This document shows, in pieces, positions 7-27,318 of a stretch of 32,000 bases of DNA. This DNA comes from Methylorubrum extorquens. GTDB taxonomy: Bacteria; Pseudomonadota; Alphaproteobacteria; Rhizobiales; Beijerinckiaceae. How positions within the stretch are numbered: the first letter of the stretch is position 1; each line of letters starts with the position of its first letter. The stretch spans positions 480,001-512,000 of the forward strand of contig LT962688.1 in NCBI GenBank assembly GCA_900234795.1, in the 5' to 3' direction. Made by a program: the position numbers and the translations under genes. The notes beneath the pieces are model-generated. The model had not been told where the DNA came from, did not search any database, and saw only the letters and a list, made by a program, of their open reading frames with translations.

Positions 7-930
7 TCATAGGAAGCCTTTGCCGGCGTGGTTCTTGAAGGCCTTCGCCCGGCGGTCGTAGGCCTTGAGGGTCTTCACTTCGCGATGCCGGGTCACATCC
101 ATGACCTTCAGCAGGTCGGCGCCCGCCTCGAGCGCGGAGGTGACGAAGCCGGCGCGCAGCGAGTGTCCGGAGAACAGGGCCGGGTCGAGCTTCGCGGCCT
201 CGGCGTAGCGCTTGACGATGTTGGCGACGGTCCGGTCGGTCAGGTCGAAGACGCGGCCTTCCTTGATGCCGGCGGCGGCGATCCAGTCCTCGACCGCCTC
301 GACCGGCTTCAGCTTTCCGCCACGGGGAATCGCGACGATGTGGCCCTCGCCCTCCTGGTCCGTCTTCGACCGGCGGATATGGACGAAAAGCCCGTCGGGC
401 GTGCGCTCCAGGTCGGCGACCGTGAGGCCGACGATTTCGGACCGGCGGAGCGCTGCGGCGAAACCGAGCAGGAGCACCGCGCGATCCCGCTTGCCGGTCA
501 GCGTCTCGGGCACCTTCTTCAGCATGGCGCCGATCGCGCGGGCCGTGGCCGGTGCCTTGCGCTCGACGGCGACGCCGAGCCGACGCTTGATGCCCCGGAG
601 CACCGCCTTCACGGCCTCCGCGTTGGTCGGCGGCTCGTGCCCGGCGATACGGTGCATGTAGCCGATAGCGGCAGCCCGCCGGACGATCGTGGAGGCCTTC
701 AGCCCGCGGTCGGCGAGGCTGGCGAGGTAGGCCGCGACCGTGGCGGCCGAGGCCGGCGCGACGACCTGGTCGAGCCCCGCAGCCCAGCCGGCGAAATCGC
801 TCCAGTCCGAGGCGTAGGCCCGCCGCGTCGCATCGCTTTTTTCAGCGAGCGCGTACTGCGCGGCCGAGGCCAGATGATCTTGGAAGACAACGACTTCCGC
901 CGGTGCGACCGGCACCGGCAGAGTGGTCAT
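7..930 (-). CDS. Tyrosine site-specific recombinase, Cre/XerC-like
   Basis: 307-aa ORF. The C-terminal catalytic region is GHSLRAGFVTSALEAGADLLKVMDVTRHREVKTLKAYDRR (HxxR...H...Y). The N-terminal core-binding region (TRRAYASDWSDFAGW; VAAYLASLADRGLKASTI) follows the Cre-type pattern. The antisense ORF 28..978 is judged an artefact. Confidence 0.85.
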   Translation of the reverse strand: MTTLPVPVAPAEVVVFQDHLASAAQYALAEKSDATRRAYASDWSDFAGWAAGLDQVVAPASAATVAAYLASLADRGLKASTIVRRAAAIGYMHRIAGHEPPTNAEAVKAVLRGIKRRLGVAVERKAPATARAIGAMLKKVPETLTGKRDRAVLLLGFAAALRRSEIVGLTVADLERTPDGLFVHIRRSKTDQEGEGHIVAIPRGGKLKPVEAVEDWIAAAGIKEGRVFDLTDRTVANIVKRYAEAAKLDPALFSGHSLRAGFVTSALEAGADLLKVMDVTRHREVKTLKAYDRRAKAFKNHAGKGFL

Positions 931-8969: not shown

Positions 8970-9488
8970 TCAGCCCCGCGCCGCGATCGCGTCTTCGATA
9001 TCGACCTGCGCACCAGCCGAGCGGATCTGCTTCGCGGCCTCGCGCATCACGGTGCTGGCGTTGGCGCCGATGGTGACGGTGACGCCCTCCATGCCGGCGA
9101 AGGCGCGGGAGACCTTGTCCCCGACCTGCTGGCGCAGGCTCCGCTCGCTGCCGCCGCGGTTCCGGCCTGTCTCCCGTTCGATCGCAGCCTGCCCGAGCGG
9201 CGTGTCCGCCAGCATGCCGAGCGCCTGCATGTAGAGTTCGAGGATCGCCTCCTCTTCCATGCGCTCGTCGTAATCGCGCTTGCGCATGGCGATGATCTTG
9301 CGAATGACCTTCGTGTCGAAGCCGTTCGCCTTGGCTTCCGCATAGACGTCCTTGACGTCACCCGCGATGCCGGCCTTCTCTTCTTCGAGCCGTTCAATAC
9401 GCTCGATGATGGTTTTCAGTTGATCGGCCGCGACCGAGGATGGATCGACTTGCGAGGCAGGCGCACTTCTGGCATTCATTTGGCTCAC
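8970..9488 (-). CDS. DUF2312/GapR-like DNA-binding protein with about 85-aa C-terminal extension
   Basis: [71 protein letters not shown] aligns by eye with Caulobacter GapR ([61 protein letters not shown]). Confidence 0.85.
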
Positions 9489-9550
9489 CTAGATCTCGGA
9501 CATTGCAGCCGCCCGGCACCCGCTCCCCAGCAGGCCGGGCGGTTCGCGTT

Positions 9551-9871
9551 TCAGGGGTGGGGACGGCCCGGCGGCAGACCGTTGCCGTTGCGCGGGCGCG
9601 TGGGATCGCCGCCGAGGGCCGGACGCCGCGGCACGCGCGGCTCGTCGATCGCGGGCAGGTCCGTCGCCGGCAGAGCCGTCGCAGCACCGGCCCGCAGCCG
9701 CTCTTCCGCCTGCGTCAGGCCGAGGAGCGCATAGCGCCGGCACTGCACGAGGCTCCTCGCCGCCGGTGACACGTCCCCGCGCAGCAGGTCGTTCCGGCGC
9801 ACGATCTCGTCGCGCACCGTGTCGATCACGTCCGCGAGGCCGGCGTCGCTCAGATCGGCGAGGGCGCTCAT
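9551..9871 (-). CDS. Hypothetical protein (106 aa)
   Basis: The internal ATG at 9871 lies 3 nt after the stop of 9874..10170. The N-terminal half is ordinary (MSALADLSDAGLADVIDTVRDEIVRRNDLL). The longer ORF-track version 9551..10207 overlaps the neighbouring gene and is rejected. Confidence 0.5.
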   Translation of the reverse strand: MSALADLSDAGLADVIDTVRDEIVRRNDLLRGDVSPAARSLVQCRRYALLGLTQAEERLRAGAATALPATDLPAIDEPRVPRRPALGGDPTRPRNGNGLPPGRPHP

Positions 9872-9873
9872 GG

Positions 9874-10170
9874 TCAGGCGACCCGGCCGAGATCGTCGTG
9901 GGCGCGGTCGCCCTGCACGTCCCCAGGCAGGCTGGCGCGGCCGGGCTGGAAGACCGACCGGTTCAGCGCCATGAAGCCCTGCTCGATGGCGGTGCGGCCG
10001 ATGGAGAACCAGCGCGGATCGACGGTGCCCGCCGGCATCGCGGCGAGCTTGTCGAGCTGACGAAGCACCTGCTCCTCCAGCGCCTTGTTCTCGTTGACGA
10101 GGGCGACCTTCTCCTCGCTCTGCGGCTTGTAGCCGGCGACCGGGAGGCCCTGGTGCTGCTGGTTCGACAT
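9874..10170 (-). CDS. Acb2/Tad1-hairpin-like small protein (candidate cyclic-nucleotide sponge)
   Basis: 98 aa. The pattern GYKPQSEEKVALVNENKALEEQVLRQLD...DPRWFSIGRTAIEQGFMALNRSVFQP matches my recollection of the family signature (GY..(Q/L)S......N..K..EE.....D...RW..I.R...E.GFM..NR..F.P). Confidence 0.6.
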   Translation of the reverse strand: MSNQQHQGLPVAGYKPQSEEKVALVNENKALEEQVLRQLDKLAAMPAGTVDPRWFSIGRTAIEQGFMALNRSVFQPGRASLPGDVQGDRAHDDLGRVA

Positions 10171-10222
10171 GGTGGCTCCTCAGGGAAGCCGGGCGGCCCG
10201 ATGCCACCCGGAAGGGGCGGGG

Positions 10223-10807
10223 TCAGGCGGCGGGGACGATCATCCAGTCGTCGGCGAGCATGTCCGTCTGCGACGCGAGCCAGCCCATCAGGATCTCGCC
10301 CGTGGCCGTCTTCATCGTGATGCAGGGGAGCACGACAGCGCTGCCGCCGTTGGACAGGGCGAAGGCCTCGTTGTGCGGCGACCAGAACTTGTCGGCATCG
10401 ACCCGGCGCCCGCCGAGCACGCCGCTCAGCGCGAGCCACATCGCCTTGCCGTTCCAGCCCGTGCGGGCCACGCGATGCCCGGCCTTCAGGGCAGCCAGAG
10501 CGTCGCCGAAGGACATCGCCGAGGACTTCGAGACCGCCGCATAGCCCGCCTCGAACACGTCGCGCGGCGAGTGGGAGAGGTAGCCGTCGGGCTCGCTCTC
10601 CGTCGGCGCGTACCGCACCAGCATGTCGCCTTCGCTCACGGCGCCGGGGCGACGCAGGAAGCCGGCCGGGACCGGAACGACGATGTAGCCGTGCTCCGGA
10701 TGGTGCACGCCCACCTTGCCCGAGCCGTCGGCCTGGAACTCGGCCGCGCCGATCGGATAGGCCTCCACCTGCTTGTGGCTGACGTGGGTCGGGTTGAAGG
10801 GGGACAT
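10223..10807 (-). CDS. DUF2829 (Tad2-type) domain protein with unknown ~95-aa N-terminal domain
   Basis: The C-terminus MSFGDALAALKAGHRVARTGWNGKAMWLAL...ITMKTATGEILMGWLASQTDMLADDWMIV matches the DUF2829 hallmark (A...L..GK.v.R.GWNGKgm...; WlASQtDmLAeDW). The start is chosen at the ATG at 10807, preceded by AAGGAGAG. Confidence 0.75.
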   Translation of the reverse strand: MSPFNPTHVSHKQVEAYPIGAAEFQADGSGKVGVHHPEHGYIVVPVPAGFLRRPGAVSEGDMLVRYAPTESEPDGYLSHSPRDVFEAGYAAVSKSSAMSFGDALAALKAGHRVARTGWNGKAMWLALSGVLGGRRVDADKFWSPHNEAFALSNGGSAVVLPCITMKTATGEILMGWLASQTDMLADDWMIVPAA

Positions 10808-10827
10808 GCTCTCTCCTTGCTCAGCGG

Positions 10828-11283
10828 CTACGGCCGCGGCTCCATCGCCCCGAACAGGGGCAGGTCGGTCAGGTCGGAGGCAGCCGGCCGCCGCGAGCGG
10901 CGAGCAGCCGATCCCAGAAGCGGCGGCGCCACGTCCGCACCCGGTTCCACAGCGGCGCACTCCGCCGCGCGAAGAAGAGCCTCACCCGCGCGAACAGCAG
11001 CGTGGTCAGACCCGGCAGCGGCGGCGGTGAGCAGGACTTCATCGGCGAGCTTCCTGAGTTGACGCTCGCGCTCGGCGGCGTGGATGGCTTCGAGCCGGGA
11101 GAGGACGTGAGACGCGATTTCCTTCGGGGGCCGGTATTTCAGCGCCCAAAGCTTGGAGAAGGGGACGCGGGCCCGAGTAGCGACCCGGCGCATTGCGTTG
11201 CCGGCATCGCCCCAACCTGTCGCTTCCCAGCGGATCAAGTCGTCGGCCCAGGTCTGGGCCCGTGAAACGTCAGCGCTAGACAT
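10828..11283 (-). CDS. Hypothetical protein (151 aa)
   Basis: The start is chosen at the ATG at 11283 (MSSADVSRAQTWADDLIRWEATGW...). It overlaps the stop of the upstream ORF (AATGTCTAG). Confidence 0.5.
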   Translation of the reverse strand: MSSADVSRAQTWADDLIRWEATGWGDAGNAMRRVATRARVPFSKLWALKYRPPKEIASHVLSRLEAIHAAERERQLRKLADEVLLTAAAAGSDHAAVRAGEALLRAAECAAVEPGADVAPPLLGSAARRSRRPAASDLTDLPLFGAMEPRP

Positions 11284-11677
11284 TTGCGCCACCCACAAAA
11301 GCTTTTTGCACACCCTCAAATCCCTCTGTGGTTTCTTCGGACCACTGAGAGAGGACGTGCAGATGAGGGAGGGAGCGGAACGCACGAGGCACAGGAGCGC
11401 GACGGCCGACGGCTTGGCGGCAGAGGCAGGCGCGCGAGTAGGATTGGCCCGAGAAAAGGGCCGCCCCCGCGGAAACGGGAGCGGCCAAGTCCTTGGGAGG
11501 AACCCCCGTCACGGGGGCGTCAGCCGCGGGGCGGCGGCGGACTTCGGAGGCGCCGCGGGAACGGCGCGAAAGGGGACGCCCGACCTCGTCGGAAACGGTG
11601 ACCTTCGGGGGAAAGGTCGGCCGGGCGATCACGCGGTTCATTCCGCGCGATGGGGAAAGGAGGAGGGCGGCCGTCAT
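11276..11677 (-). CDS. Possible low-complexity R/P/A-rich protein (133 aa)
   Basis: Third-position GC is high when read by hand. Its ATG forms an ATGA overlap with the upstream small ORF, and its stop overlaps the start of the next gene. The sequence looks disordered, so the call is weak. Confidence 0.3.
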   Translation of the reverse strand: MTAALLLSPSRGMNRVIARPTFPPKVTVSDEVGRPLSRRSRGASEVRRRPAADAPVTGVPPKDLAAPVSAGAALFSGQSYSRACLCRQAVGRRAPVPRAFRSLPHLHVLSQWSEETTEGFEGVQKAFVGGANV

Positions 11678-11823
11678 GGCGACACCCACGAAGCGAGCCA
11701 GCACAGCCCGCATGCCGCTGCATCGACCACGCCGACAGCGAGCGCCGAGGGCGACCCGCGCAACGCAGCGCGAGCGAAGCCGGCAACAGCGCAGACGGCG
11801 AAGATAACGGCGAGCGCGGCCAT
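11674..11823 (-). CDS. Possible small hydrophobic peptide (49 aa)
   Basis: MAALAVIFAVCAVAGFARAAL...GLCWLASWVSP has two hydrophobic segments and high GC3. No convincing SD. Confidence 0.3.
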   Translation of the reverse strand: MAALAVIFAVCAVAGFARAALRGSPSALAVGVVDAAACGLCWLASWVSP

Positions 11824-11954
11824 CTCAGGCGCGCCCCACGACGAGCGACCTACCCCGCGTGCGCAGGGCAACGGTCGCATGAGCTTGGCCGACACGGGTG
11901 AAGAGCCGCCCGGCCGCCGCTATCATCGCTGGAGCGCGATGACCGGAGACGACC

Positions 11955-12212
11955 ATGCGTCCCGAGGACTTCGACGACATCATCGCCGAGCAGGCCGCGC
12001 AGCAGCAGGTGTTGCTGATGGCGCTCCGGCGGATCGCGGCGCTCACCCGTGCGAGCGGGAAGGATCCGGCCACCGTGCGCGCATGGTGGAAGGAGGACGG
12101 GCACGAGGCGATGGACGAGGCGACCTTCCTCGTAGCGCCCGGCCACGACCGCATCGTCCGGACCAAGGCGAAGGCGCGGCTCGACGAGATCATCGAGATT
12201 GGCCTTCGGTAG
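11955..12212 (+). CDS. Hypothetical acidic protein (85 aa), opposite strand inside the leftward early operon
   Basis: GGAGA lies 5 nt upstream of the ATG. GC3 is about 90% by hand. The composition is ordinary (MRPEDFDDIIAEQAAQQQVLLMALRRIAALTRASGKDPATVRAWWKEDGHEAMDE...). Its 3' end overlaps the 3' end of 12190..12564 by 23 nt. Confidence 0.55.
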   Translation: MRPEDFDDIIAEQAAQQQVLLMALRRIAALTRASGKDPATVRAWWKEDGHEAMDEATFLVAPGHDRIVRTKAKARLDEIIEIGLR

Positions 12213-12564
12213 CGAGGCCCGCCGAGCCGTGCGGAGATAGGCAGCGCAGCGGCTTCGCACGCTCGCTGGCGAACGGTCCGCCATCTGACGCGGCGCCGGA
12301 CCTGCGCTCGCCAGCCTGTGCGGCTCGAGCGGCGAGCCGCTCGGCTTTCCGCCTGGCCCGCAGTTCGGCCAGCATCCCCATGTCAACGCCGAGCGAGAGG
12401 CGCTCGCTCGCGGCCACGACCGCCGACCAATGGTCCGGCGCGATCGAGTCGCGATGCTTCATGACGTCGACGTGCTTGATGTCGATGCCCGTCTCAGTCG
12501 CGAAGCGCTCGCGGCCTTGGAAGGTCACGTCAATCAGGTCGCGGAAGGAGGCAGGCTCGCTCAT
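12190..12564 (-). CDS. Cro-like / YdaS-type DNA-binding protein, first gene of leftward operon
   Basis: It diverges from the CI-type repressor across an 83-bp operator region. The N-terminus FRDLIDVTFQGRERFATETGIDIKHVDVMKHRDSIAPDHWSAVVAAS follows the Cro/YdaS pattern (G....v..Wk.R..IP...W..i). The true C-terminal end is uncertain. Confidence 0.6.
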   Translation of the reverse strand: MSEPASFRDLIDVTFQGRERFATETGIDIKHVDVMKHRDSIAPDHWSAVVAASERLSLGVDMGMLAELRARRKAERLAARAAQAGERRSGAASDGGPFASERAKPLRCLSPHGSAGLATEGQSR

Positions 12565-12573
12565 GGCGTCATT

Positions 12574-12590
12574 ACTTACGTTGCGTAAGT
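12574..12590. promoter_or_regulatory. 17-bp perfect palindrome ACTTACG-TTG-CGTAAGT (operator) in the CI/Cro-like divergent region
   Basis: Read directly. On the minus strand it lies between TTGCGT (-35-like) and TAAGTA (-10-like), the latter ending 8 nt from the Cro-like ATG. A further TGTAAGT half-site lies at 12620-12626. Confidence 0.55.
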
Positions 12591-12647
12591 TATCGACGCA
12601 AGCCCATTCTCTGACCCAATGTAAGTTTCCAACCGCTATGGCGGCTC

Positions 12648-13292
12648 ATGCCCCGTAAAGCGGCCCCACCGGATCTGAGCACGCAAGGCGGCCGCCTCAT
12701 GGCCGCTCGCCTTGACGCGGGCATATCGACCCGGCCGGAGGCGGCCGAGATGTTCGACCTGCCGAAGTCGACATACGAGTCGCACGAAACCGGGCTCCGG
12801 GGCGGCGCCCGCGGCATCCCGATTGAGAACGCGCGGCGGTACGCGCGGCGCTTCGGTGTGTCGTTGAGCTGGCTGCTGACTGGCCAGGGCCCGCGCAATG
12901 CCAGCGAGGCAATCGAGATCCGGGGCTATATCGGCGCAGGTGCCGAAATCGAGGACCAGGACGGCGCGTCCCGCTTCGAGGAAATCGGCATTGAAGTCGC
13001 CGACCAGGATGCGTTCGAGTGGTACGAGGTTCGAGGTGACTCGATGCAGCCGCGTGTCTATCCGGGCGAATTAATTGCTTTCGAGCGCCGGGAATACGAG
13101 CCGGCGCAACTGCTGCGGCAGGAATGCTTAGTTCTTCTTGAGGATGGCCGGCGCTTCTTCAAGAAGTTGAACCCTGGAAGCGCGCCGGGTTATTTCGACC
13201 TAATCTCCTACAACGACGCGGACCGCCCCGACGAGCGGGTCATCAGCGTGGGAAAGGTCGCGATGATCGTCTCCAGGCCTAGAAAGGCATAG
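12648..13292 (+). CDS. CI/LexA-type phage repressor (XRE HTH + S24 peptidase domain)
   Basis: The HTH is AEMFDLPKSTYESHETGLRGGARGIPIENARRYARRFGVSLSWLLTG. The S24 catalytic Ser is in VRGDSMQP and the catalytic Lys in RRFFKKL. Confidence 0.9.
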   Translation: MPRKAAPPDLSTQGGRLMAARLDAGISTRPEAAEMFDLPKSTYESHETGLRGGARGIPIENARRYARRFGVSLSWLLTGQGPRNASEAIEIRGYIGAGAEIEDQDGASRFEEIGIEVADQDAFEWYEVRGDSMQPRVYPGELIAFERREYEPAQLLRQECLVLLEDGRRFFKKLNPGSAPGYFDLISYNDADRPDERVISVGKVAMIVSRPRKA

Positions 13293-13548
13293 GCACGATC
13301 TGGGTCAGGATCTGCGTCGGCACCTGACCGTGAACCTCCAGCAGCACCGGGTCGTCGAACTCGTCGAGATCGGGATCTCCGGAACGCGCTAAGGCAACAG
13401 CCCCCGCGCATCGTGAGGCCGTCCTCGCTGCCTGACGGCAGGCATCATCTGCGGACGAGCAGGCCAACGGCTCGCCTACGGCAAGTGCTCCTTTCCTCGT
13501 CCTCACCACCGGCACGACAACGGCAACCGTCTTTCGCCCCACGCTCAA
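13279..13548 (-). CDS. Possible hypothetical protein (89 aa), convergent with the repressor gene
   Basis: TTG start, moderately high GC3, 14-nt 3' overlap with the repressor gene. No family recognised. Confidence 0.3.
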   Translation of the reverse strand: MSVGRKTVAVVVPVVRTRKGALAVGEPLACSSADDACRQAARTASRCAGAVALARSGDPDLDEFDDPVLLEVHGQVPTQILTQIVPMPF

Positions 13549-18766: not shown

Positions 18767-19064
18767 CGCCCGCGCCTCGGCTCCGGCCCAGGAGCCATCC
18801 TGCCTGTATCCCGACGAGGCCGAACTCGCGCGAGTCGTGCTCGGCCCAAAGCGGGCGAAGGCGTGGGGCGGTCTCGCTGCCGTCCTCGAGCGCAGCGGCC
18901 TCCCGAAGGTCGATCCGATGATGGGCGGTCGCTACTGGCCCGCCGTCCGAGAATTTCTGGACCGCTATCACCATACCGGCGACCATGCCTCCACCCGGCA
19001 CCAGGGCCGGAGGGAGGAGGGTGTCCATGCCAGCGGAGCACGAGTTGCACGCGCCCGGTCTTAA
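18759..19064 (+). CDS. Hypothetical protein in the excisionase position upstream of int
   Basis: High GC3. LYPDEAELARVVLGPKRAKAWGGLAAVLERSGLPKVDPMMGGRYWPAVREFLDRYH. The function is not established from sequence. Confidence 0.4.
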   Translation: MGSARASAPAQEPSCLYPDEAELARVVLGPKRAKAWGGLAAVLERSGLPKVDPMMGGRYWPAVREFLDRYHHTGDHASTRHQGRREEGVHASGARVARARS

Positions 19065-20229
19065 ACGGATGAAGCGCCACAACGGGCGCGTCGATCTCTA
19101 TTGGGTGGCCGACGAGAAGCTCGTCGCCAAGGGGTTCACGCCAAAGACGGTTCGCCTGTTCGGAGACTGGCCCTCGCAGGAGATCGCCTCGCGCTGCGCG
19201 ATCCTGCAGGCCGAGATGTTGGAGTGGGCCGCCGGCCGCGAGCCAGGCCGGAACGCGTTCGCCCTCGGCACCATCGGCTGGATCTGTCGCGCCTTCGAGA
19301 CCGACCCCGATTCGCCGATCCATGAGCGCCGGCGAGACACCCGCGTCTTCTACGGCAAATATATCCGCCACCTGGTGGTGGCCGCCGGTGACGAGCACAT
19401 GGCCGACATCATCGGCCGCGACGTGCGCCGGTGGCACCGGACTTGGACGGACGAGATCGGCGAGCGCGGCGCCTACGCCTGCATCCAGACGCTCCGCCGG
19501 GTCGTGAATTATGGGTGCGAGCTTCGAGACCGCGACGCGATCGAACTGGCCCCTGTGCTGACGAAGACGACGTTCCGGCAGCCGCGCGCCCGCAAGCTCC
19601 GCCCGAGTCACGAGATGATCGTCGCTCTGCGCACCGCCGCCCACGATGCCGGCCGGCCGAGCATCGCGCTCGCGGTAACGCTTCAGTTCGAACTCGGGCT
19701 TCGGCAGAAGGACGTGATTGGCGAGTGGGACCGACCGGACGCCGAGGCGCGCAGCCGAATCGCCGGGGCCATCACGGACGGCGCATGGGTCTGGGATTGG
19801 GGCCTCATCTGGAACCACATCGACGGGACGATCCTGCGCAAGCCGACGTCGAAGTCGAACGGCAACGAGGTCGCAGAGCACGATCTCAGCCATTACCCCG
19901 AGTTGCTCGCCGAGCTGCCGCCACGCGGCGTCGGTCCGCTGGTCATCGATGAGCGGTCCGGCCTGCCGTGGAAGCGCTCGCACTTCAGTCGGACGTTCCG
20001 CGAGATCGCCAGGGCCTCCGGATGGCCCGATGGCATCTGGAACATGGACAGCAGGGCAGGGGCGGTCAGCGAGGCCTTCGAGGCGGGCGCGGCGCCGGCC
20101 GACGTGATGCGCACCGCGACCCACACTCAGATGTCGACGACGATGCTCTATAACCGGGGATCGGTGGTGCAGTCGGGTCGCGTGGCCGAGCTACGAACGG
20201 CGCGGCGGAAGGCGAAGCCTGCGGGCTGA
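19027..20229 (+). CDS. int: Phage tyrosine integrase
   Basis: Catalytic signatures LGLRQKDV (Arg), SRAGAVSEAFEAGAAPADVMRTATHTQMSTTMLY (R...H...Y). The start is chosen at the ATG at 19027, 6 nt after GGAGGAGG; the ORF-track start 18985 is possible. It is adjacent to tRNA-Asn. Confidence 0.9.
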   Translation: MPAEHELHAPGLKRMKRHNGRVDLYWVADEKLVAKGFTPKTVRLFGDWPSQEIASRCAILQAEMLEWAAGREPGRNAFALGTIGWICRAFETDPDSPIHERRRDTRVFYGKYIRHLVVAAGDEHMADIIGRDVRRWHRTWTDEIGERGAYACIQTLRRVVNYGCELRDRDAIELAPVLTKTTFRQPRARKLRPSHEMIVALRTAAHDAGRPSIALAVTLQFELGLRQKDVIGEWDRPDAEARSRIAGAITDGAWVWDWGLIWNHIDGTILRKPTSKSNGNEVAEHDLSHYPELLAELPPRGVGPLVIDERSGLPWKRSHFSRTFREIARASGWPDGIWNMDSRAGAVSEAFEAGAAPADVMRTATHTQMSTTMLYNRGSVVQSGRVAELRTARRKAKPAG

Positions 20230-20250
20230 AAACACCCGGAGAACAACGGC

Positions 20251-20268
20251 GGTAACAGGCGCGGTAAC
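20251..20268. repeat. Two direct GCGGTAACA repeats 12 bp apart between int and the tRNA (candidate arm-type sites)
   Basis: GGTAAC at 20251-20256 and 20263-20268, read directly. Confidence 0.3.
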
Positions 20269-20306
20269 ACGCCTCGGCCGATGTCTAGCTAAGTGATTGA
20301 AAGATT

Positions 20307-20382
20307 TGGCTCCCCGAGCAGGACTCGAACCTGCGACAAAGCGATTAACAGTCGCTTGCTCTACCAACTGAGCTATCGGGGA
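20307..20382 (-). tRNA. tRNA-Asn (anticodon GTT), CCA encoded
   Basis: The reverse complement folds by hand into a cloverleaf: TCCCCGA-TA-GCTC-AGTTGGTA-GAGC-A-AGCGA-CTGTTAA-TCGCT-TTGTC-GCAGG-TTCGAGT-CCTGC-TCGGGGA-G-CCA. Confidence 0.95.
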
Positions 20383-22148: not shown

Positions 22149-23549
22149 GTGAAAGAACGGAACCCTGCGGCGCGGTCCGCGCTTCGGCTGGCTGGCGCCG
22201 TCGTCTCGGCACTGGCTGTCGCAAGTCCGGCGGCTGCCGAGACCCTCGAGAGCGCGTTGTCCCGCGCCTATCAGGCCAACCCGGCGCTGAACGCGGCGCG
22301 GGCGAACCTGCGCGCGACCGACGAGGATGTGAATCGCTTCCAGGCCGGCTACCGACCGAACGCCGCGCTTTCGGCTGACATCGGCATCCAGCAATTCCAG
22401 GGTAAGATCGGCGGCGTCGGCGCGAGCGGGCCGATCAATCTCACGACTCGCCCGGGCGGCGCCGGCCTGACCATCAACCAGAACGTCTTCGACGGCTTTC
22501 AGACCGACAACCGGGTGCGCGCGGCCGAATCGACTGTGCTCAGCACGCGGGAAGGCCTGCGCCAGACCGAGATGAACACGCTGTTCAATGCCGCTCAGGC
22601 CTACATGAACGTCCTGAGCGACACGGCGACGTTGGAGCTTCAGCGCAACAACGTCGAGGTGCTCGAAGAGCAGCTCCGTCAGACTCGCGACCGCTTCAAT
22701 GTCGGCGAGGTGACCCGCACCGACGTCGCCCAGGCCGAAGCACGCCTCGCCGGCGCCCGCTCCCAGGTGAGCGCGGCGGAGGCGGCCCTGCGTGCCTCGA
22801 TCGGTATCTTCCGGCAGATCGTCGGCGTCGAACCGCGCCAGCTCGCCCCTGGGCGCCCGCTCGACCGCTACGTGCCGGCCTCACTCGATCAGGCGATTCT
22901 CATCGGCCTGAAGGAGCATCCGCAGATCCTGGCCTCGCTGCACGCCGTGGACGTGGCGGAGCTGCAGGTGAAGGTGAACGAAGGCGCGCTCTATCCGCAG
23001 GCCCAGATCACCGGGGCGGTGCAGCAGCGGTACGATCAGCAGTTCCCCGGCGACAACGGCGTCACCGCCTCGATCGTCGGACGGGTCAACATTCCGCTCT
23101 ATCAGGGTGGCGCCGAATACGCCGCGATCCGGCAGGCCAAGGAGAATGTCGGGCGCGCCCGCCTCGTCGCCGACCAGGACCGCGACACCATCCGCGCCTC
23201 GATCGTGCGGACCTGGGGCAATCTCGAAGCCTCGAAGGCGCAGGTGATCGCCTCGCAGGCGCAGGTTCAGGCCAACGAGGTGGCGCTGAACGGCGTGCGT
23301 GAGGAGGCTCGCGTCGGCCAGCGCACCACCCTCGACGTGCTGAACGCGCAGCAGGAACTGCTCTCCGCGCGCGTCGCCCTGATCCGCGCCCAGCGCGACC
23401 GCGTGGTGAACTCCTACGATGTCGTCCAGGCCGTCGGCCGGCTCACCGTCCGCTTCACCAGCCTGCCGGTCACCCCGTACAGCGCCCGCGAACATCTCGA
23501 TCAGGTGCGCGATCTCTGGTTCGGCCTGCGCACCCCCGACGGGCGCTGA
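22149..23549 (+). CDS. tolC: TolC family outer-membrane efflux protein
   Basis: Signal peptide RSALRLAGAVVSALAVASPAAA/ETLESAL. Typical TolC repeats are present (LESALSRAYQANPALNAARANLRA; NVGEVTRTDVAQAEARLAGA; GQRTTLDVLNAQQELLSARVALIRAQRD). The start is taken at the GTG at 22149; an upstream start is possible. Confidence 0.85.
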   Translation: MKERNPAARSALRLAGAVVSALAVASPAAAETLESALSRAYQANPALNAARANLRATDEDVNRFQAGYRPNAALSADIGIQQFQGKIGGVGASGPINLTTRPGGAGLTINQNVFDGFQTDNRVRAAESTVLSTREGLRQTEMNTLFNAAQAYMNVLSDTATLELQRNNVEVLEEQLRQTRDRFNVGEVTRTDVAQAEARLAGARSQVSAAEAALRASIGIFRQIVGVEPRQLAPGRPLDRYVPASLDQAILIGLKEHPQILASLHAVDVAELQVKVNEGALYPQAQITGAVQQRYDQQFPGDNGVTASIVGRVNIPLYQGGAEYAAIRQAKENVGRARLVADQDRDTIRASIVRTWGNLEASKAQVIASQAQVQANEVALNGVREEARVGQRTTLDVLNAQQELLSARVALIRAQRDRVVNSYDVVQAVGRLTVRFTSLPVTPYSAREHLDQVRDLWFGLRTPDGR

Positions 23550-24597: not shown

Positions 24598-27318
24598 ATG
24601 ATGGACAAGACCTTCGACCCCGCCGCCGTCGAGGCGCGCGTCTCCGCGGCCTGGGAAGAGGGCCAGGCCTTCCGCGCCGGCCGCCCCGAGCGGGCCGGCG
24701 CCGAGCCCTTCAGCATTGTGATCCCGCCGCCGAACGTGACGGGCTCGCTGCATATGGGCCACGCGCTCAACAACACGATCCAGGACATCCTCGTCCGCTT
24801 CGAGCGGATGCGGGGCAAGGACGTGCTGTGGCAGCCGGGCACGGACCACGCCGGCATCGCTACGCAGATGGTGGTCGAGCGCAAGCTGATGGAGACGCAG
24901 CAGCCGGGCCGCCGCGAGCTGGGACGCGAGGAATTCCTGCGCCGGGTCTGGGCCTGGAAGGAGGAATCCGGCGGCACGATCATCGGCCAGCTCAAGCGGC
25001 TCGGTGCCTCCTGCGACTGGTCGCGGGAGCGCTTCACCATGGATGAGGGCCTGAGCCGCGCCGTGCTCAAGACCTTCGTCGATCTGCACGCGCAGGGGCT
25101 GATCTACCGCGACAAGCGCCTCGTGAACTGGGACCCGAAGTTCCAGACCGCGATCTCGGACCTCGAAGTCCAGCAGATCGAGGTGAAGGGCCATCTCTGG
25201 CACTTCGACTACCCCGTTGTGGACGAGGCCGGCACGCCGACGGGTGCGATCATCACCGTAGCGACGACCCGCCCCGAAACGATGCTCGGCGACACGGCGG
25301 TCGCCGTCCATCCGGACGACGAGCGCTACCGCGACCTCGTCGGACAGCGCGTGCGTCTTCCTCTAGTCAACCGGCTGATCCCGATCGTCGCCGACGTCTA
25401 TTCCGATCCGGAGAAGGGCACCGGCGCGGTCAAGATCACCCCGGCCCACGACTTCAACGACTTCGAGGTCGGGCGCCGCAATGGCTGCCGCCCGATCAAC
25501 GTCCTCGATGCCGAGGCGCGGATCCAGATCGCCGGCAACGCCGATTTCCTCGACGGCGCCGAGCCGGAGGACGCCGCGCTGGCGCTCGACGGCCTCGACC
25601 GGTTCGAGGCCCGCAAGCGCGTCGTCGCCCTGATGGAGGAGCGCGGCCTGCTGCGTCTGGTCGAGCCCAACACCCACGCGGTGCCGCATGGCGACCGTTC
25701 GGGCGTGGTGATCGAGCCTTACCTGACCGACCAGTGGTACGTGAACGTCAAGCCCCTGGCCGAGCGCGCCCTCCAGGCGGTGCGCGACGGGCAGACTCGC
25801 TTCGTCCCGGACAACTACGAAAAGATCTTCTTCCAGTGGCTGGAGAACATCGAGCCGTGGTGCGTCTCGCGCCAGCTCTGGTGGGGCCACCAGATCCCGG
25901 TCTGGTACGATGCCGAGGGCGGCATCTTCGTCGCCGAGAGCGAGGCGGACGCGGTCGCGCAGGCGAAAGCCAAGCACGGCCGTGAGGTCGCGCTGACCCG
26001 CGATCCCGACGTGCTCGACACGTGGTTCTCCTCCGCGCTCTGGCCGTTCTCGACGCTCGGCTGGCCGGACAAGACGCCGGAACTGGCCCGCTTCTACCCC
26101 ACCAACACCCTGGTCACGGGCAAGGACATCATCTTCTTCTGGGTCGCCCGGATGATGATGATGGGCCTGCACCTCACCGATCAGGCGCCGTTCGAGACCG
26201 TCTACCTGCACACCCTCGTCCGCGACGAGAAGGGTGCGAAGATGTCGAAGTCGAAGGGCAACGTGGTCGATCCGGTTGATCTCATCGACCGTTTCGGTGC
26301 CGACGCGCTGCGCTTCACGCTGGCCGCGCTCGCCGCCCCCGGCCGCGACATCAAGCTCGGCCCCCAGCGGGTCGAGGGCTACCGCAACTTCGCGACCAAG
26401 CTCTGGAACGCGGCGCGCTTTGCCGAGATGAACGGCTGCGAACTCAAGGCCGATTTCCGGCCCGAGGCCGTGCGCGAAACGCTCAACGCCTGGGCGCTCA
26501 CCGAGGCCGCCAAGGCGGTGGCGGAGGTGGCGCAGGGCATCACGGTCTACCGCTTCAACGATGCGGCGGCCGCGGCCTACCGCTTCGTCTGGAACGTGTT
26601 CTGCGACTGGTATCTCGAGCTCGCCAAGCCCGTGCTTCAGGGCGAGGGCGTCGATCCGGCGGCACGCGCCGAGACGCAGGCGACGGTCGCCTTCCTGATC
26701 GACCAGATCGCCAAGCTGCTGCACCCGTTCATGCCCTTCCTCACGGAGGAGCTGTGGGCGATCAAGGGGCAGGTGCTGCCGACACCGCGCGGCCTGCTCG
26801 CGCTCGAATCCTGGCCCGAGCTCTCGGCCTATACGAACAAGCAAGCCGAGGAAGAGATCGGCTGGCTGGTCGATCTGATCTCCGAGGTCCGCTCGGCCCG
26901 CTCCGAGACCAACGTGCCCGCCGGCGCCCAGGTGCCGCTGGTGCTGGTGGGTGCCGATGAGGGCGTCCGTGCTCGGGTCGAGCGTTGGAGCGAGACGCTG
27001 ACCCGCCTCGCCCGCCTCTCCGAGATCGGTTTCGCCGACGCTGCGCCGAAGAACGCCGTCCAGCTCCTCGTGCGGGGCAGCGTGGCGGCCCTTCCGCTCG
27101 AGGGCATCGTCGATCTCGCGGCTGAGGTCGCGCGGCTGAAGAAGGAGGCGGGCAAGGCGCGGGCCGAGATCGGCAAGATCGATGGCAAGCTCGGCAACGC
27201 CGACTTCCTCGCCCGCGCGCCGGAAGAGGTGGTGGACGAGCAACGCGAGCGCCGCGACGCGGAGGCGGCCCGGCTCGTCAAGATCGAGGAAGCGTTGGTC
27301 CGGCTCAGTGAGGCATGA
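24598..27318 (+). CDS. valS: Valine--tRNA ligase
   Basis: 906 aa. The HIGH motif is in PPPNVTGSLHMGHAL and the KMSKS motif is present. The C-terminus is coiled-coil. Confidence 0.97.
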   Translation: MMDKTFDPAAVEARVSAAWEEGQAFRAGRPERAGAEPFSIVIPPPNVTGSLHMGHALNNTIQDILVRFERMRGKDVLWQPGTDHAGIATQMVVERKLMETQQPGRRELGREEFLRRVWAWKEESGGTIIGQLKRLGASCDWSRERFTMDEGLSRAVLKTFVDLHAQGLIYRDKRLVNWDPKFQTAISDLEVQQIEVKGHLWHFDYPVVDEAGTPTGAIITVATTRPETMLGDTAVAVHPDDERYRDLVGQRVRLPLVNRLIPIVADVYSDPEKGTGAVKITPAHDFNDFEVGRRNGCRPINVLDAEARIQIAGNADFLDGAEPEDAALALDGLDRFEARKRVVALMEERGLLRLVEPNTHAVPHGDRSGVVIEPYLTDQWYVNVKPLAERALQAVRDGQTRFVPDNYEKIFFQWLENIEPWCVSRQLWWGHQIPVWYDAEGGIFVAESEADAVAQAKAKHGREVALTRDPDVLDTWFSSALWPFSTLGWPDKTPELARFYPTNTLVTGKDIIFFWVARMMMMGLHLTDQAPFETVYLHTLVRDEKGAKMSKSKGNVVDPVDLIDRFGADALRFTLAALAAPGRDIKLGPQRVEGYRNFATKLWNAARFAEMNGCELKADFRPEAVRETLNAWALTEAAKAVAEVAQGITVYRFNDAAAAAYRFVWNVFCDWYLELAKPVLQGEGVDPAARAETQATVAFLIDQIAKLLHPFMPFLTEELWAIKGQVLPTPRGLLALESWPELSAYTNKQAEEEIGWLVDLISEVRSARSETNVPAGAQVPLVLVGADEGVRARVERWSETLTRLARLSEIGFADAAPKNAVQLLVRGSVAALPLEGIVDLAAEVARLKKEAGKARAEIGKIDGKLGNADFLARAPEEVVDEQRERRDAEAARLVKIEEALVRLSEA

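Follow-up and report, generated by a model that had tools for sequence, protein, structure and literature searches.

An Acb2-family protein, probably a signal sponge, encoded beside a Tad2-type sponge gene in a replaceable slot of a Methylorubrum extorquens prophage

We analysed 32,000 nt of the Methylorubrum extorquens contig LT962688.1 (hereafter the window, in which all coordinates are given; 67.7% guanine plus cytosine (GC)), which holds the right-hand part of a prophage, and here describe a small minus-strand gene whose 98-amino-acid product belongs, as judged from its sequence, to the Acb2 family of signal sponges. This acb2-like gene spans positions 9874-10170, with its ATG at 10170-10168 and its TGA at 9876-9874, and its position and translation are exactly those quoted in the initial annotation of this DNA. 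The GC content at its three codon positions is 0.74, 0.42 and 0.95, the coding signature of such DNA, and it is the only open reading frame (ORF) across its stretch that passes the filter on third-position GC. Reading the sequence further shows a GAGGAG Shine-Dalgarno element 5 nt ahead of the ATG, at 10176-10181, and a distance of 2 nt between the stop codon and the ATG of the following gene; 32 indexed blocks of public assemblies contain a protein identical to this one. Upstream, a spacer of 52 nt (10171-10222, minus strand) separates the acb2-like start codon from the stop codon of a second minus-strand gene (10223-10807), whose 194-amino-acid product combines an OB-like N-terminal domain (amino acids 1-96; 10520-10807), hereafter the N-domain, with a Tad2-like domain (amino acids 98-191; 10235-10516). 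The same spacing recurs in related prophages (L001-L005).

The 98-amino-acid protein matched the Pfam family PF24729 (Acb2_Tad1_hairpin) along the whole profile (positions 1-58 of 58), with E = 8.3e-19 and 68 bits, where the gathering cut-off is 27. The initial annotation had proposed this family from a layout of residues and had suggested a profile search; the layout is exact (G13-Y14, K29 fifteen residues later, then R53-W54..I57.R59...E63.G65-F66-M67..N70-R71..F74.P76) and, with a Pfam match of this significance, goes far beyond chance. The hairpin core, taken as the Pfam envelope, covers amino acids 13-75 (9946-10134, minus strand) and carries Y14, K29, R53, I57 and T60. Precomputed annotation gives PF24729 for all listed homologues except P0101, and relatives are already labelled 'DUF7681' or 'Acb2/Tad1 hairpin domain-containing protein' by NCBI and UniRef; PHROGs returned an unnamed family only, and NCBIfam had no match for the Acb2 protein, the Tad2-like protein or their neighbours. 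Among PDB sequences, phmmer with the single sequence as query found, at E = 4.5e-5, PaMx33 Acb2 ('p26'; 8H2J, 8H2X, 8IXZ and others), whose N- and C-terminal halves both aligned, and T4 Vs.4 at E = 0.09; with a profile of 58 homologues, the corresponding values were 7e-11 and 3e-8. TAL-effector rows in the profile search were set aside as spurious, since their scores are summed over repeats and no single stretch lies above the threshold.

A single-chain AlphaFold2 model, built on the 58-sequence alignment, is a two-helix hairpin (helices at residues 19-43 and 52-74) with a mean predicted local distance difference test score (pLDDT) of 81.8, and above 93 across residues 21-70. When this predicted monomer was compared with the PDB using Foldseek, a comparison that the initial annotation had proposed for a multimer model, Acb2 (8H2J/8H2X) and Vs.4 (7UQ2) filled ranks 1-8 with probability 1.0, template-modelling (TM) scores of 0.55-0.63 and 24-27% identity; matches beyond rank 8 were generic helical hairpins at E ~1. 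Profile and structure searches thus both returned the family. No Tad1 chain was matched in the PDB by phmmer (E up to 10), by the clade profile or among the top 50 Foldseek matches, and we therefore place the protein in the Acb2 branch of the joint family: of the 'Acb2/Tad1' label first given to it, the Acb2 part is borne out by profile, structures and fold, whereas the Tad1 part found no Tad1 structure to match. The protein is accordingly best described, by sequence, as an uncharacterised further representative of the already known Acb2 family. Small and prophage-borne, it has homologues in isolated phages (RcapMu and RcWaterboi, with 68-70% identity, and phages of Caulobacter, Rhizobium and Brevundimonas), and in P22-like and other viral contigs, where the Tad2 neighbour is lacking. 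No natural tandem fusion of two Acb2 units, which would serve as a stand-in for a dimer, was found among the homologues. Some homologues (P0034, P0036, P0066 of 144 amino acids and P0104 of 150 amino acids) have added C-terminal domains of 60-70 amino acids with no assigned function.

The residues that contact ligands in characterised Acb2 proteins can be located in the window protein. The initial annotation named Tyr11 and Lys26 as these residues, and the literature agrees: in PaMx33 Acb2, Y11 stacks (pi-stacking) on the base of a cyclic dinucleotide, K26 forms a salt bridge with the ligand, and the Y11A and K26A substitutions abolish binding of cyclic GMP-AMP (cGAMP) (PMC10312549). Cyclic tri-AMP (cA3) or cyclic AMP-AMP-GMP (cAAG) is held elsewhere, in a pocket at the threefold axis, via R67 and T74, with contributions from A70 and I71; cA3 binding is lost in R67A and about 100-fold weaker in T74A (PMC10312549). 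P90 of the same protein touches the bound base (PMC12393519). Alignments with PaMx33, and also with JBD67 Acb2, put Y14 on Y11 and K29 on K26, at equal spacing, R53 on R67, S56 on A70, I57 on I71, T60 on T74 and P76 on P90. All four experimentally defined ligand residues are therefore retained, Y14 and K29 in a predicted dinucleotide pocket and R53 and T60 in a predicted trinucleotide pocket, and across the 58 homologues T60 is conserved in at least 90%, whereas Y14, K29 and R53 do not vary at all. The alignment also shows D51-P52 ahead of R53, much like E64-P65-G66 ahead of R67 at the kink of PaMx33 Acb2. JBD67 Acb2, in which all four residues are present, binds cGAMP at ~99 nM and cA3 at ~3.5 nM, whereas T4 and CHI14 Acb2, from each of which one of the Arg/Thr pair is missing, bind dinucleotides only (PMC10312549). 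The Arg/Thr pair is confined to the broad-spectrum subset of the family. In the T4 protein, geometry as well as residues decides cA3 binding (PMC10312549). Because pocket geometry (kink and helix angles) matters too, we consider cA3 binding by the window protein to be likely, yet less certain than dinucleotide binding.

Conservation extends beyond the hairpin. A clade-specific C-terminal extension (amino acids 76-88; 9907-9945, minus strand) with the motif G77-R78-x-x-L81-P82-x-D84 lies beyond the point where PaMx33, JBD67 and T4 Acb2 end; among the 58 homologues, which form an alphaproteobacterial clade, R78 never varies and L81 and D84 are each conserved in at least 90%, whereas JBD67 and PaMx33 lack the motif. 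The clade also has a conserved N-terminus, H6-x-G8-L9-P10-V11, in which H6, G8, L9, P10 and V11 are invariant or conserved in at least 90%. We suggest that the R78/L81/D84 extension may be a lid that shifts the range of ligands. Between the two available alleles, the ratio of nonsynonymous to synonymous substitution rates (dN/dS) is 0.41 for the Acb2 gene (24 substitutions) and 0.32 for the Tad2-like gene; for Acb2 this suggests purifying selection, weakly, since it is a single independent pairwise comparison. None of the 10 amino-acid changes between the compared Acb2 alleles touches a ligand residue. A further, near-identical allele (L026; IMGVR_UViG_3300031088_000021) carries W54R, S72A and P82S; W54 is otherwise conserved in at least 90% of homologues and adjoins the arginine of the trinucleotide pocket.

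The initial annotation described the gene as lying directly next to a DUF2829 (Tad2-type) gene, and the C-terminal domain encoded 52 nt upstream is indeed of this type. It matches PF11195 (DUF2829) with E between 1e-23 and 1.5e-23 over the full profile (1-73 of 73), and its PDB matches are AcrIIA7/Tad2 (8KBI; E = 2e-15), SptTad2 and SPO1 Tad2; judged by these matches, the neighbouring gene encodes a Tad2-type sponge. Its start corresponds to M52 of a longer ORF, as in public contigs. The N-domain of the same protein has no match in Pfam, NCBIfam or PDB sequences (phmmer). Its AlphaFold2 model (pLDDT 92.1) has five beta strands and one helix. We considered and rejected the possibility that it is Lockin or another solved sponge fold, as Foldseek found nothing in the PDB at E <= 1e-3; the nearest PDB structures, at E >= 0.017, have generic OB folds (phage L Dec, LysRS, ExoVII, SSB), and in BFVD the domain resembles only a handful of unnamed viral proteins.

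Homologues of the N-domain are few. A word-indexed search with the N-domain alone found 2 proteins, and exhaustive and full-length searches were required to find more; exhaustive phmmer gave 31 clusters only. Assigned with Pfam, the partner domains among 35 N-domain carriers (including P0069, P0122, P0155, P0175 and P0243-P0270) are Tad2 in six, Acb4 (PF13876; PMC11722364) in five, Sequestin (PF21825) in four, the Acb2 hairpin in two and RyR in one, in the orders Acb4-N-Sequestin, Acb4-N, N-Acb4, N-Sequestin, N-RyR, N-Tad2 and N-Acb2; there are also stand-alone N-domain ORFs of 89-126 amino acids. In RyR Tad, gp68 of Pectobacterium phage CB1, the corresponding region (amino acids 1-86) was left as 'unknown function'; in the crystal structure it forms a domain-swapped sheet of five strands and thereby helps the protein to dimerise, and by itself it did not inhibit type I Thoeris (bioRxiv 10.64898/2026.06.04.730250). 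Comparison of our N-domain alignment with gp68 amino acids 1-94 using hhalign gave a probability of 97.3% and E = 2.4e-11, from which we conclude, at the level of sequence profiles, that the two are the same domain. The N-domain could be a dimerising adaptor common to five sponge families, or a sponge for another signal.

The Tad2-like and Acb2 genes sit in a segment that is exchanged between related prophages. In the nearest relatives (L001-L005), prophages that are otherwise mosaic, the genes for the 194-aa Tad2-like protein and the 98-aa Acb2 protein recur at identical spacing, with 52 nt between them. In sister prophages, the same position, with the same genes on either side, is occupied by a single gene, which encodes the N-domain joined to Acb4 (PF13876) in L021 and L022 (198 amino acids), to an uncharacterised helical module in L023 and L024 (199 amino acids), or to a different Tad2 domain, here Tad2', in L025 and L028 (214 amino acids). 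Alignment with L021 and L023 using blastn shows 84-90% DNA identity to the window across the N-domain coding sequence (10875-10538), then a break, and a return of similarity at 9912-9917 (around amino acids 86-87 of Acb2). Together with locus maps, these break-points define a replaceable slot at 9913-10537 (minus strand) that comprises the Tad2 domain, the spacer and amino acids 1-85 of Acb2. The helical module of P0175 (amino acids ~95-188; about 95 amino acids, mostly helical, no Pfam match; L023 5001-5600, L024 2026-2625) stands at the Acb2/Acb4/Tad2 position, and by that position is a candidate for a further sponge or anti-signalling module.

The 3' boundary of the slot is constant. The slot proteins (for example P0155, P0164, P0173 and P0175) and the window Acb2 end in the same ten residues, RAHDDLGRVA, and the 33 nt that encode these residues and the stop codon (9874-9906, minus strand) are 100% identical in all four locus types (Acb2, Acb4, Tad2' and the helical module), as examined in L003, L021, L023 and L025-L028 and including an exact-match scan of IMG/VR; the flanks are ~88-92% identical. 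RNA structure as the cause of this invariance was tried and rejected (z = -0.24). The block probably serves as an arm for recombination or encodes a C-terminal peptide common to the slot proteins. Amino acids 89-98 of the window Acb2 are, by this comparison, read from the constant 3' edge of the slot and lie outside the Acb2 fold, and the slot-edge tail explains why the protein has 98 amino acids here and 77-90 in most relatives.

The wider setting is that of a temperate phage. The right end of the prophage (18985-20382) consists of an integrase gene (18985-20229, plus strand; phrog_1) and a tRNA-Asn gene (20307-20382, minus strand; ARAGORN and Rfam), with host genes from 20504, including the housekeeping genes PCMT, TolC, ValRS and DegP. 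Rfam found two tRNAs over the window and nothing else. No att direct repeat of the tRNA-Asn end is present within the window, and so the prophage continues past its left edge; IMG/VR contigs with the same cassette are 56-64 kb long. A second tyrosine recombinase gene (7-930, minus strand; XerC/D-like, with Phage_integrase and SAM-like N-terminal domains) lies ~18 kb from the tRNA-Asn integrase. The minus-strand series runs, in order, from a gene for a 161-aa protein through the 194-aa Tad2-like gene, Acb2 and a gene for a 106-aa protein to genes for a GapR-like DNA-binding protein (8970-9488, minus strand; PF10073, E = 4e-34), RusA and a DNA methyltransferase; the GapR-like gene is kept downstream of the slot in all sister prophages, followed by those for RusA and the DNA methyltransferase. 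The prophage also encodes YqaJ.

The gene had been placed in an 'early operon', and it is position alone that speaks for this. A gene for an S24/LexA-type prophage repressor (12648-13292, plus strand; Pfam Peptidase_S24 and HTH_19) is divergent from the strand of the sponge genes. A sigma-70 promoter scan of 9400-13400 found none, and the sponge cluster is separated from the repressor by a terminator-like hairpin as well as by a convergent 85-aa gene (11955-12212, plus strand). The hairpin (11459-11486, minus strand) is strong, 10 of its 12 pairs being G-C, and is followed by CTTTTCTC; it falls within the non-coding stretch 11314-11954, in a gap of ~640 nt upstream of the sponge cluster that has no minus-strand gene. 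Given the hairpin and the convergent gene ahead of it, the sponge cluster may have its own promoter or need antitermination.

We propose that the window protein is a canonical Acb2-family signal sponge in a lambda-like prophage of a Methylobacterium/Methylorubrum-type host. Profile, model and analogy with characterised proteins lead us to hold this with considerable confidence, and its most likely function is as a sponge for cGAMP-type dinucleotides and for cA3/cAAG. The protein would assemble into an interlocked homo-hexamer, as PaMx33 and JBD67 Acb2 do, an arrangement with three sites for dinucleotides and two for trinucleotides. Paired N-terminal regions would clamp 3',3'-cGAMP-type dinucleotides, with Y14 on the base and K29 to the phosphate, and three protomers at the threefold axis would grip cA3 or cAAG through R53 and T60. 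The products of cGAS/DncV-like nucleotidyltransferases (CD-NTases) would be sequestered rather than degraded, leaving the effectors of antiphage signalling systems based on cyclic oligonucleotides (CBASS) idle during phage replication. If acb2 is co-transcribed with the Tad2-type sponge gene 52 nt upstream, the pair would blunt both cGAS-like (CBASS) and Toll/interleukin-1 receptor (TIR; Thoeris) signalling upon induction or infection.

Several observations weigh against this proposal, wholly or in part. Identity to characterised Acb2 proteins is ~26-33% only, and L14 of PaMx33 is replaced by Q17. By alignment, the hairpin tip is shorter by ~18 residues than that of PaMx33 and by ~30 than that of JBD67; with this segment missing, R53 stands at the first turn of helix 2, and the trinucleotide pocket may, as a result of the short tip, be shaped differently from that of PaMx33. 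Since P90 of PaMx33, the equivalent of P76, contacts the bound base, the R78/L81/D84 extension that follows P76 could act on the dinucleotide pocket and reshape it. Early expression of the sponge genes is something that we infer from gene order only. Lastly, members of the family with other ligands have been described, as discussed below.

A broader interpretation is that the locus is a three-module anti-signalling cassette, in which the N-domain is itself a functional immune-evasion module. It would then be a sponge of a sixth family, for some further signal, or else a universal adaptor for dimerisation on which several unrelated sponge families depend. The argument is 'guilt by fusion': the domain is a fusion partner of Tad2, Acb4, Sequestin, Acb2 and RyR Tad, placed in either order, and also stands alone, and Sequestin was found in this way, via its fusions to Tad2 and Acb4 (PMC12265669). 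We put this interpretation forward tentatively, as a possibility that we consider somewhat doubtful.

An alternative to the canonical sponge is that the Acb2 fold has been retargeted, such that the main ligand is a TIR-derived signal (3' cyclic ADP-ribose (3'cADPR) or another glyco-cyclic ADP-ribose (gcADPR)) or some other nucleotide signal, with the conserved termini shaping the pocket as in Acb2_43. We retain this alternative because 10 of the 46 Acb2 homologues tested, about one in five, inhibit type I Thoeris, and because one of these ten, Acb2_43, which does not inhibit CBASS, binds 3'cADPR via additional strands at its N- and C-termini (PMC12393519). Indeed, H6, G8, L9, P10, V11, R78, L81 and D84 are strongly conserved outside the hairpin, in segments that PaMx33 and JBD67 either lack or have in another form. 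However, the Tyr/Lys and Arg/Thr pocket pairs are both kept and conserved, which is the signature of CBASS-binding Acb2, and a Tad2-type sponge, the founding members of which are anti-Thoeris, is already next door, such that a second Thoeris sponge would be less needed. The anti-Thoeris function that the initial annotation had included in its title finds no specific support here beyond the published binding of 3'cADPR by some Acb2 homologues, and we think a retargeted ligand unlikely.

It is a good deal less probable still that the protein is a relic of the Acb2 family, which travels with a recombining accessory slot and has lost its signal binding, or a hairpin with a purpose other than that of a sponge. 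The constraint measured on the gene is mild, resting on one comparison; its C-terminus reads into slot-boundary sequence, so that the ORF arose by recombination; the W54R change in the sister allele L026 lies beside R53; and in Mu-like phages the homologue adjoins the capsid gene (directly after the major capsid gene at 22985-23311 in JBD67, L019, and at 24643-24933 in RcWaterboi, L020). On the other hand, the ORF is intact, has a good ribosome-binding site and is unchanged across many samples, distant homologues in phages keep the functional residues unchanged, and the capsid-adjacent Acb2 genes of JBD67 and PaMx33 are proven sponges. The capsid-side placement in Mu-like phages and the repressor-side placement in the window family suggest the same sponge under different expression programmes. 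Finally, the idea that this is not Acb2 but a Tad1-type protein with a gcADPR pocket as well as a cyclic-oligonucleotide pocket draws on the joint coverage of Acb2 and Tad1 by PF24729, and can be given almost no credence, given that sequence and profile searches of the PDB (sequence search to E of 10) and its top 50 fold matches contained no Tad1 chain and that the 98 amino acids are modelled as the hairpin plus short tails, and nothing more.

As a canonical sponge, the window Acb2 would add an alphaproteobacterial, temperate-phage representative to a family known as widespread, and, being of minimal length with both predicted pockets, would be a handy test of the need for the hairpin tip in cA3 binding. 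We consider the slot and the recurrent N-domain to be more useful than the Acb2 assignment itself. The slot is precisely bounded and holds Tad2 plus Acb2, Acb4, another Tad2 or an uncharacterised module in prophages that are otherwise alike, which makes it a natural catalogue to search for further inhibitors of immune signalling; it also illustrates how temperate phages exchange such inhibitors via recombination. The N-domain that anchors it has the fold labelled 'unknown function' in a 2026 preprint, and its tie to five sponge families makes a role testable. Panoptes-type guard systems are triggered by sponge-carrying phages, and sponge cassettes should therefore predict which prophages such systems can sense.

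Among known systems, the closest parallels are the Acb2 proteins of PaMx33 (8H2J, 8H2X, 8IXZ) and JBD67. The window protein shares with them the Pfam family, the two-helix hairpin (Foldseek probability 1.0, TM ~0.6), the four ligand residues, the conserved G-Y, N..K, RW, G.M and QP motifs, and small size and carriage by phages. It differs in its divergent sequence (26-33% identity), in its tip, shorter by ~18 (PaMx33) or ~30 (JBD67) residues, in having Q17 where PaMx33 has L14, and in adding the G-R-x-x-L-P-x-D extension and the 10-residue slot-boundary tail; moreover, its gene is near the repressor among early-type genes, whereas theirs lie beside the major capsid gene. T4 Vs.4 (Acb2; 7UQ2) shares the fold and the N-terminal [IV]-x-G-Y-K-P...K motif for cGAMP binding, but lacks an Arg at the R67 position and has a geometry that excludes cA3, whereas the window protein has both the Arg and the Thr. 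Acb2_43 (Hadary et al., 2025; PMC12393519) belongs to the same family and likewise has extra conserved segments at both termini; by its published description, however, T4, H5, L6, V7, K19 and K55 in its beta strands bind the ligand and CBASS is not inhibited, whereas the window protein has retained the Tyr and Lys of the canonical pocket.

Nearer relatives, in the phages named above (RcapMu, RcWaterboi and those of Caulobacter, Rhizobium and Brevundimonas) and in Methylorubrum/Methylobacterium, have 50-97% identity to the window protein and share its short hairpin and C-terminal motif, but the Tad2/Acb2 cassette and the RAHDDLGRVA tail occur only in the nearest Methylobacterium-type prophages. 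The presence of several sponge modules per locus or protein recalls the sponge fusions Acb4-Tad2, Acb4-Sequestin and RyR Tad (Tal et al., 2025; bioRxiv 10.64898/2026.06.04.730250), and RyR Tad gp68 has an N-domain homologous to that of the window Tad2-like protein (hhalign 97.3%). Unlike in those fusions and hot spots, Tad2 and Acb2 are separate ORFs in the window; and whereas those hot spots are in N4-like lytic phage, the slot described here lies in a temperate alphaproteobacterial prophage, bounded on one side by N-domain coding sequence and on the other by the 33-nt invariant block.

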